A stretch of 63,724 bases of DNA, filler included, from Rhizaria sp. SCN 62-66 (lineage: Eukaryota): NCBI GenBank assembly GCA_001724265.1. It is 3 parts of 3 records of this genome, joined end to end, with 100 filler letters (N's around TTAATTAATTAA, not from the genome) between each part and the next. Parts side by side here need not be neighbours in the genome. Positions count along the whole stretch, not along the records: positions 22,699 to 45,291 come from MEDY01000438.1; 2 more parts are not named here. One strand, 5' to 3'. Below, in pieces: positions 7,082 to 45,391 of this stretch. The notes under the pieces were generated by a model, which worked only from the letters and a program-made list of their open reading frames with translations, had not been told where the DNA came from and did not search any database. Position numbers and translations under genes: made by a program. The number at the start of each line of letters is the position of its first letter. The first letter of the stretch is position 1.

Positions 7082-8056
7082 TCAACCCTTACGCTGCTGC
7101 TGCTTGTTGCCCGCCAGCGACACTGCCACAATCCCCAGCCCCGGCGCCGCCGCTGCCGCCGCGCTCGTCTGCTGGACCACCGCCGCCAGCGTCGCCGTCT
7201 CGGCCGCGGCGTCCTTGGCCGCCTTGCACAACTCGACGAGCCGGGTGGCCACCGCTGACTGGGACGCAGCGACGCGGGACAGCTGTGCACGCGTCGGCAG
7301 CGCACTCGGGGCGGTCAAACCGGGCACAACAGAGCCAGCGCTTGCGTCTACACTCGCAGCAACGGCAGCAGTTGACTTTTCACCCCCACGCTTATTGTTG
7401 TTGTTGTTGTTGTTGCGGCCCTTAGTCTTGCCAGTCGCGTTGCCGGTGTCGTCATTCTCGTCGTTATCGGCAGCAGAAACAGCAGCAGTAGCGGTCGTAG
7501 CTGCGCCGGGATATGAGCTGGCCTGGGCAGCGGCGGTGGCAGCAGCGGCGGCGGTGGCCGCGGCAATCGCTTTGTCAGAGTCGGCCTCAAGCGCTGTCGC
7601 AATAGTTGCGGTGACGCCCCTACCAACGCTCGCGCGCAGAGCCGCCACGGCCACCACGCGCGCAGCAAGCCGCTATTCGAGTTTGGCGACACTGGCAACA
7701 AGTGCGGTGTCAAGGGGCTCGGTTGGCAGAGCAGCGGAGAGGGGGAGTTCCCAGTCGACCTTGGAGAGAGTCTTGGACATTAGGGAGTCCATCCAACACT
7801 CGAGGTGGGCCTTCAGAGACGCGCGCTCAATGCTGGAGAGGCGTTGCGCGCTCGGCTATAGCATATCAAAAAATAAAATGAAGCAAACATAGTTTGGGTG
7901 AGATCGAGGTGATCAAGTGGAGGAAAGTAGGGAGAGACAAGAGGGAACTTGGAGACGAACCACTTTCTTAGCGTCAGCAAGGTATTCCTCGCAACTTTCG
8001 ACAAGCAGAGCGCGGATTGCGTCGTACTGTGCGCTCGAGGCGTCGTAGCTGTTCAT
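7082..8056 (-). CDS. Probable kinetochore Nsl1/Mis14-like coiled-coil protein; one in-frame TAG
   Basis: Exons 8056-7961 and 7855-7082 (phase-0 intron GTTCGT..TAG). Segment EPLDTALVASVAKLE[TAG 7675-7673]RLAARVVAVAALRASVG resembles the Mis14/Nsl1 EPxDxxLxxxVxxL...VAxLR signature. Stop TGA. Confidence 0.55.
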
Positions 8057-22598: not shown

Positions 22599-22698
22599 NN
22601 NNNNNNNNNNNNNNNNNNNNNNNNNNNNNNNNNNNNNNNNNNTTAATTAATTAANNNNNNNNNNNNNNNNNNNNNNNNNNNNNNNNNNNNNNNNNNNN
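22599..22698. other. Artificial contig-joining spacer
   Basis: 44 N + TTAATTAATTAA (stops in all frames) + 44 N. Confidence 0.97.
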
Positions 22699-35315: not shown

Positions 35316-38300
35316 ATGCAAGCCCTCGGCTACCAAATCGCGCCGCCGTCGTGGACGATGACGCGATTCCAGGGCTTCCTGGGCTCCTTCGCGCTTGCCT
35401 CCGCCGCCGCGGGCGTCGGCGCCGCGGGCGGGACGGCCGGCATGACCAGCGACGAGGCCGCGGCCGCGCTGGCCAACAACGAGAACACCTCGCACCCGAC
35501 GATGACGCTGCTGGTCCCGTCTCTGCTGGCGGCGCTGGGGTGCATTGCGTTTCTGCCGCTGGGCGTTGTGGCCGGCTTCAACACCGCGGACACGTGCTCT
35601 GTTGTCGACAATATTGCGCTCTTTTCCTGCACCGCATTCGCAACCGTTCAGATGGGTGTCTTGCTCATCCCAACCTTTTTCTGCGCCGTGTCGGCGCTGT
35701 GCGTGTACAAAGCCGTAGAGCCCTTTTGGGCCCTGTACAGCTTCTACAACAAGCGCATCAAAGCCGGCAACGCCTTTGCGCAGCCCAGCAGCTCGAGAAG
35801 CGGCTCTGTTGCGAGTAGCCAGCAGCAACGCCCGTGGGCCTCTGAGCCCCTGTTGCCTCACTCATCGGCTGCGTCTGCGGCGGCCTCTGCGGCCGTCCCC
35901 GCCGCGTCCGCTGCTGCTGGCTCTGGCGTAAATAACAACAGCAGCAGCGTTAACAGCAGCGCTAGATACGGATCGTCGTCAGACGCTAGCTCTAGCGAGT
36001 CAAGCAGCAGTGGTAGCAGCAGCAGCAGTAGCAGCAGCAGCATCAACAGCAACAGCAGCACTACCGCTGCCGGCGGCGGCAGCACCAACCAGTCGTTCCT
36101 GGGCGCGCGCTTTGCCGCCTGGCGCCGCTCCCGCACCGAAGCCCGTCTCGCCGCTGCCGCGGCCGCTGAGAGTGCAAGCGCGGTTGCGGACGCAACGGGC
36201 GGGGGCCGGCTGACCGCCGCTGTTGGTGCGCCGGTGGCCTCGGCGGTGACCGTGCGCACTGCGCCTGAAGACGTGGGCATTGAGACCGGGGAAGTACGCA
36301 CGCGGCCCTATTGCAGCAATTACCGCTTCGTCTTTGTGGTCATAATGGCGACGGTAACGCTGATGGTGCTGGCTGTGACGATCATGGTCGAGATCACGCA
36401 AATTGCGCTCTCGCAGGGCCCCAGCAGCAACTGCAACTGCATTGTACGTTATATCCTCTGCTGAATATCAAACTACTCAATCAAATTCATAATAATACCA
36501 ATATTTTGTAATAGGCATTTTAACGTGCCAGTATTTTTTTCAAACTCCTTAAAACACTCAAACGCTTCGCTTACAACTCCAACAAAATGTTTGTATTGTC
36601 GTATCTCCAGCCCATGCCCCTTTACGTCGTAATCAACGCGCTCATCCTGCTCTCGTGTCTCTACTGTGAGTACATTGTGCTCTCGGGCGCCTTCTGCGCC
36701 GTGGGCAACGCATGCACGAGCGCGCTGTCGATCGAGCCCGTGCTCGTGCGCGCGCACCTGCGCGTGCTGCTGCAGCGCCGCGTGCGCCAGGCCATGCTGC
36801 AAGTCAGCAGCGCGCTCACCGCAAACCCCACGTCCTTCAGCAACGACGCCAACGCAGGGCTCGCGCGGTCTGGATCATCAGCACTGCCTGAGGGTAACAA
36901 CAGCAGCAGCAGCAACGTCGGCGTGAGCAGCAGCAACAGGGACAGGAGTGCGCTTCAAAGCCCTGCTGCTGGTGCCGGGGCCAGTGGCGCGGGCAACAAT
37001 GCTAGCTCCAGCTCTCTTCAGCAGCAGCAGCAACAAGAACAGCAGGAACAATAGCTTGAGCCGCAGCCGCAGCTGACGCCGGCAGAGGCCGCCTCCGCCG
37101 CAGCGCAAGACACAATCAGGGAGATCATGCTGCGCAACTGCGAGATCGACATGGCGGGCAACAAACTCTTCATCTTCGACCAGCGCTGGGCGCGCGCGCC
37201 CGTCATCCCCGTCGCCATGATTATCGACAAGGATGGCAACGCCGCGCCCGTGCCGGGGAACAACATCCCTGCATCTAGCGCCGCCGCTGCTGCGAACCCT
37301 GGCGCGGGCGCAAGTGCTGGCGGTGCAAACGCGAATGCAAGTGCGCAGAGAGAAAACCCTCCTGCGCCTGCGCCTGCGCCTGCGCCCGTGCCCGAGTCCT
37401 CCGAGCAGCACCAGCGGCAGCAGCAGCACGCCCATGCCAGTAGCAGCAGCAGCAGCAGTAATAGCACGCCGCTATCGCCGACATCTCAGGACGCTCTGCT
37501 GCCGCTACAACAACAGCCTGTTAGTGCTGGTGCCAGCGCAGGTGCAAGTGCAAGTGCAAGTCATCAGCAGACGAGTTCGGCCTCCGTATCCCCGCTTGCT
37601 CACGGTCACTCGGCGCACGGCCACTTCGGCGCTGCGAGTCGCCGCGCGAGCAGCGGACATGAGGGCCAGGCTGGACTGGAGATGACTCCGCGCGGCGGCT
37701 CTGCTGCCCACGCTCACTCTACCGCTCACGGTCACTTCAGTCCCCAGCCACTCGCTGGCAGTCCCGCCGCTCCAGGCTCATGGTCTGGTCTAAACAACAC
37801 TCGTGATCACACTGCTGCTGCTACCCGTGTCGGCGCTGGCGCAGGTCCTGGCGCTGGCGTGCCGATGACCGACGGCGACGACATCGGCAGCGCGGGCAGC
37901 AGCCCTCTGGACGCGTTGCGCGACATCGCCGTATCCCCGTCCTCACAGCTCCCCGGCGGCGAGCCGAGCCCCGTCGACGGCAGCAACACCAACGGCAACG
38001 CAGGCAACATTGGCGAGAGCGCGATGGCGAGTGCAAGTGCAGGTGCGAGTACAGAACCTGAGCGCACGCTGATTTCGCTCCGCCGCCGTCCGTCGGCCAC
38101 GACCGCTACAAACGGTCTTGCGAGCGCACTCAGTGAAGGTGTAACCACGCGATCAAAGTCTGCGGCCGCCGCGGCTGCGGCTGCAGCGGTTGCTGGCAAC
38201 CATCGCAGCGACAACAGCGAAGATGAGAGCAAACGCAGTTTTGACGCGGAAGGAAACAGCAGCCACGCAAGCAATGCCAATGCAACCACGGCAGCTGACG

Positions 38301-39927
38301 TCACTCCTGTTCCTGCCGCCGCCGCACCCGCCGCTGCCGCACCCGCCGCTGCCGCGCCCGCCGCTGCCGCGCCAGCCGCACCCGCCGCCCCTGCCCCTGC
38401 CGCAGGCGGTCCCACGGCAAACCTGCCGATGGCGGCGCCATTCCGGCTGCAGCAGCGCATCGCGACCTACAAGTGGTACTACATCCACCTTACTCCGATG
38501 CCCGTCGAAGGCGCCATTGCGCCCGCCAACGTCGCGGGCGCCGCGGGCGCCGGCGGCATGCGTCCGCAGACAATGCTGTCTTTCTACCGCGTCAAGCGCT
38601 ACAAGCCCGTCGTCGCGCCGACCCCGGCCAACACCAGCGGCGGCGGCAGCGGGAGTAGGGCGGGCAGGCTGGCGGTGTTGCCGGGGTCGAATGGCGTTGC
38701 GACCACGCCCAGCGCCTCCGCAGTTGCCGTCGCCGGCGCCAGCGCAAGCGTCAGCGGCGCCGGTGTGAGCAGCAGCGCTCTAGCGACTGGTGGCGGCGTG
38801 CGGCGGGACCGTGAGGGCACGTGCTTCGACCGCGCCGCGCACTCGCAGCTTAGCTCGGGCATAGTGCCCGCCGTTGCGCAGTCACCCAGTAACACTACCG
38901 CAGGCGCAGGCGCGGGCACGGGTGACACGGCGGAGAGCCACGGTCACGGTCACGGGCAGGGGCAGGGGCAAGCGGCCGAGGAAGAGGAAGACATGTGCGT
39001 GATCTGCTGTCTCGCACTGTGGCCGGACCAGTATCGCGGCTTTCAGAAGCAGTGGGTTGAGGTCAGCAACAAGCCCAAGCGCCCGCGCACGCACGCCCAC
39101 AGCCACGCGGGCGCATCGGCCCACGGTCACCTGGCCGCCCACGGTCACTCGGGGACGGCGGCTGCAGACCGGGAAGTCACACTGGGGACGCCAAGTCACG
39201 GCCACAGCGGGCAGAGCAGCAGTCGGCCGCCGCTGTCTGCGGTCTCCGTCGCAGCCGCCAATCACAACAACAGCGGCGGCAGCAGCAGCAGTGCGGGTGC
39301 GCTTAGCACGGCAGACTCGTACAACAGCGCGACGTTTGGGCCGGGCCCGCGCGCGTCGGCCGTAACCATTGCGGCGCCGCTGCCCGTGTCCTTCGGCGAG
39401 GTCGTCAGCGTCTGCGCCGCCGCGGGACACGCGCGCATGCACGCGCACTGCGCAGACGACTGGCTCTGGCACCAGGCCGTCTCACAGGTACGTGAATAAC
39501 AATTAAAACTACGTTCTATGAGTTTTCTATGCTATTAAAATATCGTCGTAACTGTGTTGATGCAAGTTATGTGAAATTTAAACTGTGTTACAACTACTTC
39601 TCACCCGCGTCCACTCCTGTCTGTTATCTTTGCTTTGCGCACGCTCACACAGGGCCACCCCAAGTGCCCCGTCTGTCGGTTGTCGTTGCCGCTGATGGTG
39701 GACCTGGTTAAGCAGGTTCAGGGTGCGATGGACGCCATCGACCTTGCGCGCTCGGTCCACGACAGCCACCTCGCTCTCCTCCGCAGCGGCGGCGTCGCCG
39801 GCTACGGCAGCCCCAGCCCTGGTGTGGGCGCGGGCGCGGGCGCGGGCGCGGGCTTGAGTGTGGGAGCGGCGGCGGCGCCCGCACTGCCCGTGCTGCCGCC
39901 GCCCCGAGTCAACGGACAGCAGCAACA

Positions 39928-39958
<31 letters not shown>

Positions 39959-40024
39959 GACCAGGGACAAGAGCAGGGAGAGGCAGAGCGCGCAGAAGAC
40001 GAGCGCAACCGCGATCGTCGGTGA
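35316..40024 (+). CDS. Multi-pass membrane protein with C-terminal RING-H2-like domain (probable E3 ligase); one in-frame TAG
   Basis: Exons 35316-36443, 36611-39487, 39653-40024. N-terminal TM segments. CVIC...CAAAGHARMHAHCADDWL..|GHPKCPVCR. TAG at 37052-37054 inside exon 2, in frame with ORF 37127..39499. Stop TGA. Confidence 0.75.
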
Positions 40025-40835
40025 TAGGCGACTGCGGCTGAGCGCGGGTCGTGGCGATGAGTGCGGACTCGTGACAGGTGACAAGTGACTGCAATCATGT
40101 GTACCTGGAGATGAGGTCGATTTCCAAGAGGTCTAACAAAGAAATGGTATTATCATTGCGTGATTTTGTAATGAACCTCTTAGGAAATATCCATTTTGAA
40201 CAAATTTGAACAAGAAAAGTAAGTTCTGTGATTGCAGCTCGCATTGCAAGCACCGCTGTGGTAGTGTTGCTAGCCGCGACAATAGCTGTGTAAACATGAA
40301 ATAGTGAAAGAATACTGTTTTTGATTTTAAAATAGTGATTCCAAGCCATGCTGAGCAATGACAAGGCATTTTCTAGCACTAACTCTGTACAAACTCTCAA
40401 TATGGTCTGGATTGTGACGCGTAATACAAGAAAGATTTGAGTTTGCAATGACTGTAACTCAGGCGAAAAATGACGATTTTTTACAGCATAGTAAACATTT
40501 TATAGTGTTAATCTGAGGTGCATAATAACTTAAAATGCGTTTTGACCAAAAACGTTTTTTTAGAGCGCATAGCCTTTGTAAAGTGCCCAGGTATCATTGC
40601 GAATGTGAGTTTGAACGCGATTTGTGGCTCAGACCCGTTGCCCGTTCACGCGCCTCCAATATCAAGGCTCTCGTCAAACTTCAAGAGTGTCAGGGGAGGT
40701 GCTTGAACGTAATTATCCAATGGTGGTATAATTTCATGTTGTAAAATTTCCTCATATTAGTACTTTTCAAATTATGTTTCTTGCGTAGACTGTCTTTCCA
40801 CTTCGCAGTTCTGATTAGCAAACCGCTTTCTGGCA

Positions 40836-41577
40836 ATGTCCTCAGGGTCATCCAGCGCATACTTGCGCTCGGATCCTAGCTCAGGTACGTCTCATTTCCT
40901 TCTGAAATTAGCGCCTTGTGATGTGCCATCTCTATTTTATTGTTGGCTTACTGTCTTGTACCTGTTAACTCTGCCTTTTCCATCCTCCCCACGATAGCGC
41001 GCAACCGCAGCAAGGGCGATAGGCACAACAAGAAAGACAAGAAAGACAAGAAACACAGCCACAGCTCCCACAGTAATGAGAGGCCCATGTGCCGCGACGA
41101 TGACAACCGCGACAAAGACCGCGTCAAGTCCGACAAGAAGCACAAGAAAGACAAGAAGGATAAGAAGGACAAAAGGGACAAAAAGAGCACCGCGGCCGCG
41201 CCCGCCGCCGCGCCCGTGCCCGGCAGCTTCGTCATGGGTCCAAACGGCGAGCACCCGCTGGGCCTGTACGGTCTGGCCGCGCTGACGGAGCTGCTCGCGC
41301 GCACGGCGCCGCGGCACCCGTGGCAGGAGGCGCACATGCGCGCCAACCCACACCCGGCGTGCCGCGGTCCCACGCCCGTGCCCTGGCTCGAGCGCCAACA
41401 CGTCGACGTGCAGCGCTTCTTTGTGCTGCACGACCGCCTGGCTGAGGCCTACCGCAAGGAGAGCGGCATCGAGCGCCGCGACGCTGTCCGTGAGGGCGAA
41501 GGCGACGGCGAGAGCAATGGCGGGAACCAGAACAGCCATGGAGCTGGGCGCGCGGGCAACAGCAACAGCAACAGCAT

Positions 41578-41617
<40 letters not shown>

Positions 41618-44311
41618 AGCAGGAGCAGGAGTCGCAATAATGGCGAGTTTAGCAACGGCGTGAGCAGTCCAAGCAACAACGTTAACAATGACGACGACGA
41701 TGGTGACAGTGAGACCGAGAATATCAGCAAGCACAAAAACACCAATCGCAATCATCTCAGAAAACGCGGCACGACCATCAACAACAGTCCCAAGAGCTCC
41801 CTAAACCAGAGGCCGCAGCAGCAGCGGCGGGACAATGACGACGATGACGACGGCGACGATGAAGAAGAGAATGAGGAAGAGGAGGAGGAAGATGTGCGGA
41901 GTTACCGCAAGACGCGGTCTGGCACCCAGGCCGAGCGCGAGCTCAACCAGCGCGTTACGCGCAGCCTCCGCGCCGGCGCGGGGTCAGGCACGAGCGCGCC
42001 GAGGGGGAGCGGCAGCAGCATTGGGCCGGTCAGCAAGCGCATGCGGTAGGCAAGGCAGCCCCCTTATGTCTTGAGCAACACTAACTACCACGACGACGGC
42101 AATGGCTACGACGACTGTGACGACGGCGAGGAACCCGACGGCGGCGACGACATGTGCGAGAACAGCACCCGCGCCGGCTCTGCGCCGGCGTCAACAGGTG
42201 CGCTCGCAGCAGCGATGGCGGCTGCGGCCGCTGCCTAGGCTGAAACTATTGCGAACCTAGAGGACGAGCTGCGGAACCTTGATCTCGGCCTTGATACAGC
42301 TCTCGCGGCCGTAGTTGCAGCCTCGGAGGAGCCTACTTCTCTTCCCACTGCCGCCGCGGACGCCGGACCTGACGCAGACGCAGACCCAGGTGCGGACACA
42401 GATGCAGAGCACGCCTCGAGGCTCTTGAGCGCCCTCGCCCGCAGTGACGGCCTCGCGGCGCGCGCCGCGGCGGGGCGGGCTCCCGCGCGCGCGATCGCGC
42501 GGCAGCAGCAGGACGCTGCGCTGGCCGCGCTGCTGGCCGAGATCACCGCGGAAGAGATTACGATGACAGGCGAAATTGCGACAGGCGAGGGCGCGACGGG
42601 CGGCGAGCGTGCGCGGTCGACGGCGCGCGCGGCGGCGGACGCGGCTGCGGAGCAGTACGCCGCCGCGACGGCCGCGCTGGCGCAGGTCGAGGCCGCGCAC
42701 CGGGCCCGGTATCACCTCGACGCGCCCGAAGGCAAGAGCGACTGCGACGGCGAGCGTGATACCGACGGCGAGGGATCTGGTTCCACTCTAGGCTCCGACT
42801 CCCAGTCCGGCTTTGATGCGGACAACTGCGACGCGATCGCGGCGGCGCAGGCGCTCAAGGAACTCCGCACTACTTCAGCCGCCGCCGCCGCCACCGCCGC
42901 CACCGCATCGAGCCTCGAGGCCCGTCTGCCCCGGCCCAGTCCCAGCCCCGGTGAGAGCCAGGATAGCCGCGCCCGGGGCGGCGCCACCGCTTCTGCCCAC
43001 GGTCGCAGCCGAGGCCGTGGCGGCAGTGCCAGTGCTATCGACGTCGGTCGCGGCCGCGGTTGGCGCCGGAGCCTCGGCGCCTCATCGGGCGCCAGTGCGC
43101 GCGCGTCGTCTGAGCAGTTCATCGGTCTGTCCACCAGTACTGGTCTGCCGCGGACCAAGGCGTCCATCACCTCCGCCGCTGTTGCCGCGCCCAACGACCC
43201 CGGCGACGTGTATGTCGTCAGCGATGGAGACAGCTACTGCGACAGCGATGGTGAGGAGCAGGCGGGGCGCAGGGCTGGCCGCACGCCTGCCAGAAGTGGC
43301 CACTCAATGCGCAGCAGCGCGACCGCCAGCCGCGACCGCGACCGCGCGCTGCCACCGCCATTGCCAGCGCCGGCGCCACCAGCGTCATGCCACAGCCACT
43401 GCCAGCGCGGGGACGGCTCGGCAGACTCAGACGTGCATCCGGGCTCTGTGTTGGCGCAGGCGCTGGAGCGGCAGCGGCGCGAGCGGCAGCAGAACGCGCT
43501 GGCGAGCCTGCTGCAGAAGCAGCTGCGGCAGCAGGCCGCGCAGCAGCGCGCGCTCATGTACGGCATGATGCCCGCGGGGGGCGCTGCGGCGTACGGCGGG
43601 GGCGGCAGAGGCTGGCGACGCGGCAGAGGGGGCGCGCTGAGCAGCGCCCGCGGCTCCGGCAGCAGCAGCGCGGGCGGCCGCGGCAGCGATGCGGAACTGG
43701 GCCTGATGTCCGATATGGCGGCCGAGGCAGCCGGGGCAGCGACCGCAGCCGCTGTCTCCGCCAGCTTCGGGCTCGGCTTCGGCCTTCCTTCGGGTAACGG
43801 GCAGAGTCTTTCGGCCTCATCGCCTACCTTGCATGCGAACTCGTTGTTTTCAGCCTCTCCGTCAGCGTCGGCATCCACGCCTGCAGTTACTGCGCCTTTA
43901 GCGACCGTGCCGTTACCAGTGGCGGCGTTGCCAGTGGCTGGGTCTGGGCGGGACTCGGCGCCGTCAGCGACAATTTCCTTTGAGAAAGTCAATGGACTTA
44001 AGCTTATCGAGCAAATGCAGGTGCCGTCTTCGCAGCCCTATCCATCTCAACATCAGCATCACCACCAGCGCTCACAGCTGCTGCCGTTGCAGCCACAGTT
44101 GCTGTCGCTGCAGCCGAAACCGATGCAGTACGCACAGTTCCAACCGCAGTCACGCGCGCAGGCACAGATCCAAACGCTGGCGCTGTTGTCGCCGCAGTTC
44201 GTGTCACCGCAACGACACAATCAAACGCAGCAATTGCACCAACTGCAGCATCAACGGCAGCGGCAGCTGCAGCAGCCCCAGCAACAGCAATCGACACACC
44301 AGCAACAGTAA
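40836..44311 (+). CDS. Low-complexity, probably nuclear protein of unknown function; two in-frame TAG codons
   Basis: Exons 40836-40884 and 40998-44311 (phase-1 GTACGT..TAG intron). KKDK repeats, acidic tracts and a Q-rich end. ORFs 40940..42049 and 42425..44311 share a frame interrupted only by TAG at 42047 and 42236. Stop TAA. Confidence 0.7.
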
Positions 44312-45291: not shown

Positions 45292-45391
45292 NNNNNNNNN
45301 NNNNNNNNNNNNNNNNNNNNNNNNNNNNNNNNNNNTTAATTAATTAANNNNNNNNNNNNNNNNNNNNNNNNNNNNNNNNNNNNNNNNNNNN
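45292..45391. other. Artificial contig-joining spacer
   Basis: 44 N + TTAATTAATTAA + 44 N. Confidence 0.97.

Follow-up and report, generated by a model that had tools for sequence, protein, structure and literature searches.

Probable reading of UAG as glutamate, with UAA and UGA as stops, in the nuclear code of Rhizaria sp. SCN 62-66

Few nuclear genetic codes separate UAA from UAG. Where UAG alone has changed, it was described as Gln in Iotanema spirale, Hartmannula sinica and Trochilia petrani, as Leu in Rhizaria sp. exLh and the TARA phyllopharyngean MAGs, and as Ser in Scotinosphaera (PMC5304391, PMC11687900). The codon accounts for about 8% of the Gln codons in Iotanema and for 6.5-32% in the ciliates (PMC5304391, PMC11687900). 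Both UAR codons are read as Glu in Campanella and Carchesium (PMC10553269) and in Blastocrithidia, in which UGA is recoded under AT pressure and a tRNA-Glu-derived CUA tRNA was shown (PMC12153298). Oligohymenophorea sp. PL0344 uses UAG for Glu, UAA for Lys and UGA as the stop, and carries 10 CUA tRNA genes (PMC10553269). In the available sections of PMC11687900, the meanings given for UAG where it alone has changed are Leu, Gln and Ser; Glu appears for UAG only in PL0344, together with UAA as Lys. In the literature searched, mostly open papers, we found no report of UAG as Glu with UAA kept as a stop.

The genome of Rhizaria sp. SCN 62-66, an uncultured protist, is represented by a eukaryotic assembly of 34.9 Mb in 714 contigs and occurs in bioreactor and wastewater runs. 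The presence of dyneins and kinesins indicates a flagellate, and the named eRF1 sequences matching its own are about 70% identical. If UAG is Glu in this host, as we consider probable, its code is like the UAG-only codes in mechanism and like the UAR=Glu codes in amino acid, and falls under the full definition of neither. As in the UAG-only class, UAG occurs inside conserved coding sequence as a sense codon, genes end in UAA or UGA, a CUA tRNA was found but, among the pattern matches, no UUA tRNA, and Thr32 of eRF1 is altered (T32G in Iotanema, T32S here); the amino acid differs, and UAG makes up only about 0.5% of the Glu codons. The hallmarks of a UAG=Gln code are missing: UAG does not align with conserved Gln (one paralogue site has CAG) and the tRNA is not Gln-derived. 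The Glu alignment and the Glu-type tRNA fit, with moderate strength, the UAR=Glu and PL0344 class, whereas the UAA reassignment of that class does not. PL0344 and the host thus share UAG as Glu and CUA tRNAs nearest to tRNA-Glu, but in the host UAA is the commonest stop (39/72 gene ends), and the pattern matches held a single CUA gene and no gene for a UUA tRNA. Blastocrithidia shares with it UAG as Glu through a tRNA-Glu-derived CUA tRNA; in contrast to Blastocrithidia, Campanella and Carchesium, where UAA and UAG are both Glu, the host changes UAG alone, and does so in GC-rich exons.

The starting point was a window of 63,724 nt, the whole stretch of DNA analysed, in which positions 22599-22698 and 45292-45391 (N runs with a short AT linker) are artificial contig joins. 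A preliminary description had drawn attention to a TAG embedded in a Gln tract. The codons it quoted are present, with the TAG at 37052-37054 on the plus strand, and translate as QQQQQQEQQEQ*LEPQPQL. The tract had been placed in frame with an ORF at 37127..39499, and when only TAA and TGA are counted as stops a single frame, 36524-39499, is indeed open for 991 codons, with this as its sole TAG and the ATG at 37127 in the same frame.

The model of the gene, all on the plus strand, was deduced from the DNA. Exon 1 (35316..36443), for which the first in-frame ATG at 35316 is the presumed start, encodes three TM-like stretches and gave no Pfam match. It is followed by a putative phase 0 GT...AG intron coinciding with an AT-rich dip (36444..36610). 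Exon 2 (36611..39487, 959 codons) would encode one initial TM-like stretch, a long low-complexity linker with the TAG, and the first RING-like ligands. The intron expected behind the TAG has a predicted counterpart in intron 2 (39488..39652, GT...AG, phase 0), whose donor follows the TAG at a distance of 2433 nt, and the putative exon 3 (39653..40024) ends in a TGA at 40022-40024. Exons in the window are GC-rich and introns AT-rich. The proposal that a stop here would part a TM region from a RING domain held for the first half, as the TM-like stretches at 35499, 35613, 36321 and 36623 are all upstream of the TAG. The second half stands by eye only: a RING-H2-like Cys/His pattern (38996..39679, ligands at 38996, at 39410-39451 and in exon 3) is split by an insert of about 130 aa and by intron 2, and the Pfam search of the gene returned neither a RING match nor a family name. 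Four of 13 runs (X3-X6) were compared with the window, all of them in the form of contigs; those listed for the RNA run lie outside position 37052, one of them retains intron 2, and among the junctions listed none matched either intron. The terminal TGA directly abuts a TAG (40022-40027), which would not serve as a backup stop if UAG is sense. Runs X4 and X6 contain a strain in which 23 nt are inserted into intron 2 (window position 39600) and substitutions are scattered.

The standard code leaves four explanations for such a TAG: a genuine stop, a lesion in a pseudogene, the acceptor site of an intron, or a mistake of the assembly. An assembly error at 37052-37054 was ruled out by contigs X3 (36092-37353) and X5 (36784-37113) from two further studies, which span the site with 0 differing letters. 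Use of the TAG as an intron acceptor, a possibility raised at the outset, was ruled out as well: the 60 nt on its 5' side contain 8 T, where the two real acceptors of the gene are preceded by 17 and 19, and the GC content stays at 61-74% throughout 36701-37500. No AATAAA or ATTAAA occurs within the exon carrying the TAG. Two coding-frame scans both recovered this TAG. Further in-frame TAGs in the window are found at 42047..42049 and 42236..42238 (plus strand) in the next gene, whose frame 40922-44311 ends in TAA, and at 7673..7675 (minus strand) in a coding segment recognised by the coding-frame scans.

Genome-wide, stops were surveyed with a Markov coding scan of 180 overlapping sequences (0.98 Mb). 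Stops with coding flanks on both sides comprised 21 TAG, 3 TAA and 2 TGA, although TAG is the rarest stop triplet overall (10,460 vs 12,461 and 24,401). Six of these 21 internal TAGs were preselected, their loci having been fetched for them, and without them the ratio is 15 vs 5. At 72 terminator-like gene ends found in a reverse scan the stops were TAA in 39, TGA in 29 and TAG in 4. One of the four TAG candidates is internal to a poly-Q tract; the other three are low-scoring and could be ends, so that a Condylostoma-type dual use as stop and sense could concern at most 3/72 gene ends. The difference between internal and terminal stop use was highly significant (Fisher p 5e-13, the six preselected sites included). 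A TAG located 33 codons ahead of a TAA end reads as coding, and TAA is the stop of the eRF1 gene and of the ubiquitin genes.

Conserved families were searched for the same signal. Stops were present in 14/142 kinase matches, 13 of which were inspected: among nine with a single TAG, five TAGs were internal and four, at the edge of the match, were intron acceptors, and the TAA or TGA codons of the remaining four all lay inside read-through introns. Lone internal TAGs were also detected in eRF1, UBE2J1, USP5/13, three ankyrin repeats, a MORN repeat and a ubiquitin-like domain; searches of the DEAD, kinesin, ABC, WD40, Ras and dynein AAA_6 families yielded no internal TAG. A TAG at the edge of a family match was not counted as evidence, since 9/9 of those checked were intron acceptors, and the Gln-like edge TAGs of Ras and DEAD were dropped for this reason. 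The existence of such edge artefacts, and the derivation of the other readings from DNA sequence, speak for the standard code. Against it stand the window site, unchanged in two other studies and devoid of acceptor features, the internal TAGs in intact conserved domains, the recurrence of the eRF1 TAG in an independent metagenome contig, the presence of a cognate tRNA and the near absence of TAG from gene ends. We regard the standard code as scarcely credible here, and UAG as almost certainly a sense codon. It is a rare one, with 39 occurrences in 193,330 modelled codons (about 0.02%), an upper bound given that the TAG was the reason for including some of the loci, and a few of the 39 may be calls in the wrong frame; the same set holds 6,645 GAG, 1,085 GAA, 6,799 CAG, 1,314 CAA and 98 ATA codons. 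In the public protein set the USP5/13 gene (L189, contig C108) is split at its TAG into P0245 and P0250.

A single gene for a tRNA with the CUA anticodon was identified outside the window, at L090:1489-1561 (minus strand) on contig C84. Initially found by a pattern search, it was confirmed by ARAGORN and by Rfam (58 bits); its CCA is not encoded, a T run follows downstream, and it is situated among host-type genes. In an ungapped comparison over 73 positions it was identical to Glu(CUC) at 47, to Glu(UUC) at 40, to Gln(CUG) at 33 and to Gln(UUG) at 29, Glu(CUC) being the nearest of 39 other distinct tRNA sequences. It matches Glu(CUC) exactly in acceptor pairs one to five and throughout the T stem, and relative to that tRNA 21/21 stem pairs are kept, five of them through two-sided changes; the retention of pairing, partly by paired changes, implies that this tRNA is old and maintained. 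It differs from the host Gln tRNAs at each of the first three acceptor pairs and at the discriminator, and at 73 nt it has no long variable arm of the tRNA-Leu type. ARAGORN labels any CUA tRNA as pyrrolysine. That identity was rejected in view of the U1-A72 pair and the Glu-type body, since tRNA-Pyl identity includes G1-C72 (PMC9976931). A wider CUA/UUA pattern gave 29 matches, about as many as the control; after ARAGORN was run on the candidates no second CUA and no UUA tRNA was found among them, the others being arms of Leu, Thr or Ser tRNAs or non-tRNA sequence. The Rfam search scored 63/506 candidates, and the assembly may lack further tRNA genes. Copy numbers are one for the CUA tRNA vs eight matches for Glu(CUC), and genes for both GluRS and GlnRS were located in the assembly. 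The tRNA-Ala(AGC) and (UGC) genes (L004, L031, L079) have atypical T loops and score low in comparison with the other tRNAs.

The preliminary description had taken the window site as evidence that UAG is Gln. The sense reading is upheld by the genome-wide tests and the CUA tRNA; the amino acid is not, given the Glu-type tRNA and three orthologue columns. A lone site in a low-complexity tract is uninformative on the amino acid inserted, and that TAG is one transition away from CAG most likely tells of its origin, not of its meaning. For eRF1, 117 of the 120 homologues listed were aligned (three fused forms were left out), and the column at the UAG held E106 D10 V1 and no Q. The single Val belongs to the closest relative, P0004 (84% identical), which tells us that this site can vary in the lineage. 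In UBE2J1 (the best 120 of 130 matches, in an alignment anchored only on the right and gapped left of the site) the column was D57 S14 E13 N9 T9 H6 G5, again with no Q, among 113 sequences with a residue. In USP5/13 (HMMER search, 150 of 297 matches, the two split pieces of the host's own protein left out) it was E77 S11 D6 A6 N6 Q5 for 131 confidently aligned sequences, and the two closest relatives among the matches listed had Glu in an ungapped alignment even though the query carried Gln. The three columns, none of them invariant, point towards Glu or another acidic residue and away from Gln. Pfam bit scores summed over 12 sites, three of them shared with the orthologue columns, were, relative to E, -2.0 for Q, -2.6 for K, -8.5 for D, -9.3 for S, -13.2 for Y and -17.1 for L. 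This test excludes Leu, Tyr and Ser and is weak between Glu and Gln, 2 bits apart. Leu, the worst of the 7 residues at -17.1 bits, was rejected also on account of the tRNA, which has no Leu-type body. A pattern search for EF-hands carrying TAG in place of the Glu codon gave 0 matches against an expected yield of about 1.

Several signals nevertheless resemble Gln. In a ubiquitin-like domain on contig C681 the TAG stands opposite a CAG of the host ubiquitin, in a copy differing by 27 synonymous and 7 other changes, and TAGs lie in Gln tracts at the window site and in L077, L062 (two) and L146. A codon-context model applied to 39 TAG sites and 20 residues ranked Gln second and Glu fourteenth. 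The context departed from that of pure Glu (sum log2 ratio -21.3, expected 12.5 +- 6.2, P below 0.001), but pure Gln was rejected too, less strongly (-0.9, expected 33.6 +- 12.0, P 0.011). The control was the rare Arg codon AGA, whose context ranked Ser first and Arg twelfth. It follows that the surroundings of a rare codon reflect the source from which it mutated, and after this control context was rejected as a test of amino acid meaning. For UAG to be Gln, with UAA and UGA as stops, a Gln-type tRNA would have to be absent from the assembly, or GlnRS would have to charge the Glu-derived CUA tRNA through U35; bacterial amber suppressors are often glutaminylated via the central U of the anticodon (PMC9976931). 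Set against the Q counts of the three columns (0/117, 0/113 and 5/131 among the homologues listed), the acceptor pairs and discriminator foreign to host Gln tRNAs, the single CUA gene among the 29 pattern matches and the Ser-like context of AGA, which marks context as a trace of origin, we find the Gln reading unlikely. The window tract already has two Glu codons, and its TAG is most likely a CAG-to-TAG change in a tract tolerating Glu. The gene on C681 (L138:601-2088) is AT-rich and fuses a host-ubiquitin copy with a coiled coil and a Peptidase_S74 (endosialidase chaperone) domain; it may be a mobile element or one of viral origin.

A nuclear code with UAG as Glu and UAA and UGA as stops is the reading that we hold to be probable; its rank above Gln and above an ambiguous UAG reflects the tRNA ancestry and three orthologue columns on one side, and one paralogue site and the Gln tracts on the other. 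In the proposed course of events, a copy of tRNA-Glu(CUC) would have acquired the CUA anticodon by one base change (A36 gained). Charged by GluRS, as its ancestry and the Glu-type CUA tRNAs of PL0344 and Blastocrithidia suggest, it would read UAG and not UAA, in agreement with the pairing of a CUA anticodon with UAG and not with UAA (PMC5304391). An eRF1 with altered stop-reading motifs would lose efficient termination at UAG. New UAG codons would then come from point mutations, with the CAG codons of low-complexity tracts as a frequent source, and be kept very rare.

The eRF1 gene (L076:3170-5087, minus strand, contig C63) has its in-frame TAG in domain 1, at human position 107. It encodes T32S, M34V, G57S, T58K and K130Q, which turn the motif GTS into GSS and TASNIKS into KASNIKS; E55, NIKS, S70 and YxCxxxF are intact. 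Position 32, here Ser, is Thr in 117/117 homologues, and T58K is unlike 116/117; the relative P0004 has T58K without T32S. In the account of Panek et al., the G of UAG is in contact with Thr32, a residue replaced by Gly in Iotanema (PMC5304391). T32S or T58K may weaken the reading of UAG. A scan of metagenome contigs for eRF1 returned 4 loci, namely three distant eRF1s and the host's own copy.

A mild set of eRF1 changes, in which T32S retains the hydroxyl, is also what would be expected if UAG were ambiguous, either because the tRNA competes with an eRF1 still partly reading UAG or because both GluRS and GlnRS charge the tRNA, so that the codon is avoided as stop and as sense. Its rarity (below that of ATA), the single CUA tRNA gene facing eight Glu(CUC) matches and the mixture of Q-like and E-like signals fit such a state. 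The GC-rich genome and the single tRNA copy also account for the rarity, however, the CUA tRNA is old and structurally maintained, and UAG lies within essential single-match genes such as eRF1, with which much termination is hard to reconcile. An ambiguous UAG is in our view very improbable. A related idea is that the UAG of eRF1 is itself a feedback sensor, with residual eRF1 activity competing with the lone tRNA-Glu(CUA) and thereby tuning the eRF1 level. Bacterial RF2, which senses itself, is the model for it. At a rough rate of one TAG per 7,000 conserved-domain codons, a gene of 432 codons such as eRF1 would have a chance of about 6% of containing one, and the Val of P0004 at this site counts against a sensor. 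No report of eRF1 self-regulation via an in-frame UAG was found in the literature searched, mostly open papers, and we consider the idea unlikely; if it were true, the organism would be a living, stable 'ambiguous intermediate'.

The code with UAG as Glu and UAA as a stop, if true, would be a new variant and a possible intermediate towards the PL0344 and UAR=Glu codes. For their two cases Panek et al. lacked the tRNA, its parent tRNA and eRF1 in combination (PMC5304391); the presence of all three in one genome here makes the roles of T32S and T58K directly testable. That UAG stays at about 0.02% in exons rich in GC, although its tRNA is old, is at odds with the AT-pressure route of Blastocrithidia. 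Codes of such low use can escape screens, and in practice public protein sets cut genes at UAG sites.

Further observations concern the ubiquitin genes and the SSU rRNA of the host. The ubiquitin genes (L136, L139, L140) carry an extra Met-Ser ahead of the monomer, diverge from typical ubiquitin and seem to have been collapsed by the assembly. An amino-acid insertion between polyubiquitin monomers was described for Rhizaria/Cercozoa (PMC12930898), and the extra Ser before the monomer, in an assembly with no monomer junction, is a weak hint towards Rhizaria. On contig C706 (L089:1501-5945) a divergent SSU rRNA was found with four group I intron matches; its last long helix appears shortened, and one of its inserts encodes a His-Cys box homing endonuclease (PF05551, E 4e-14).
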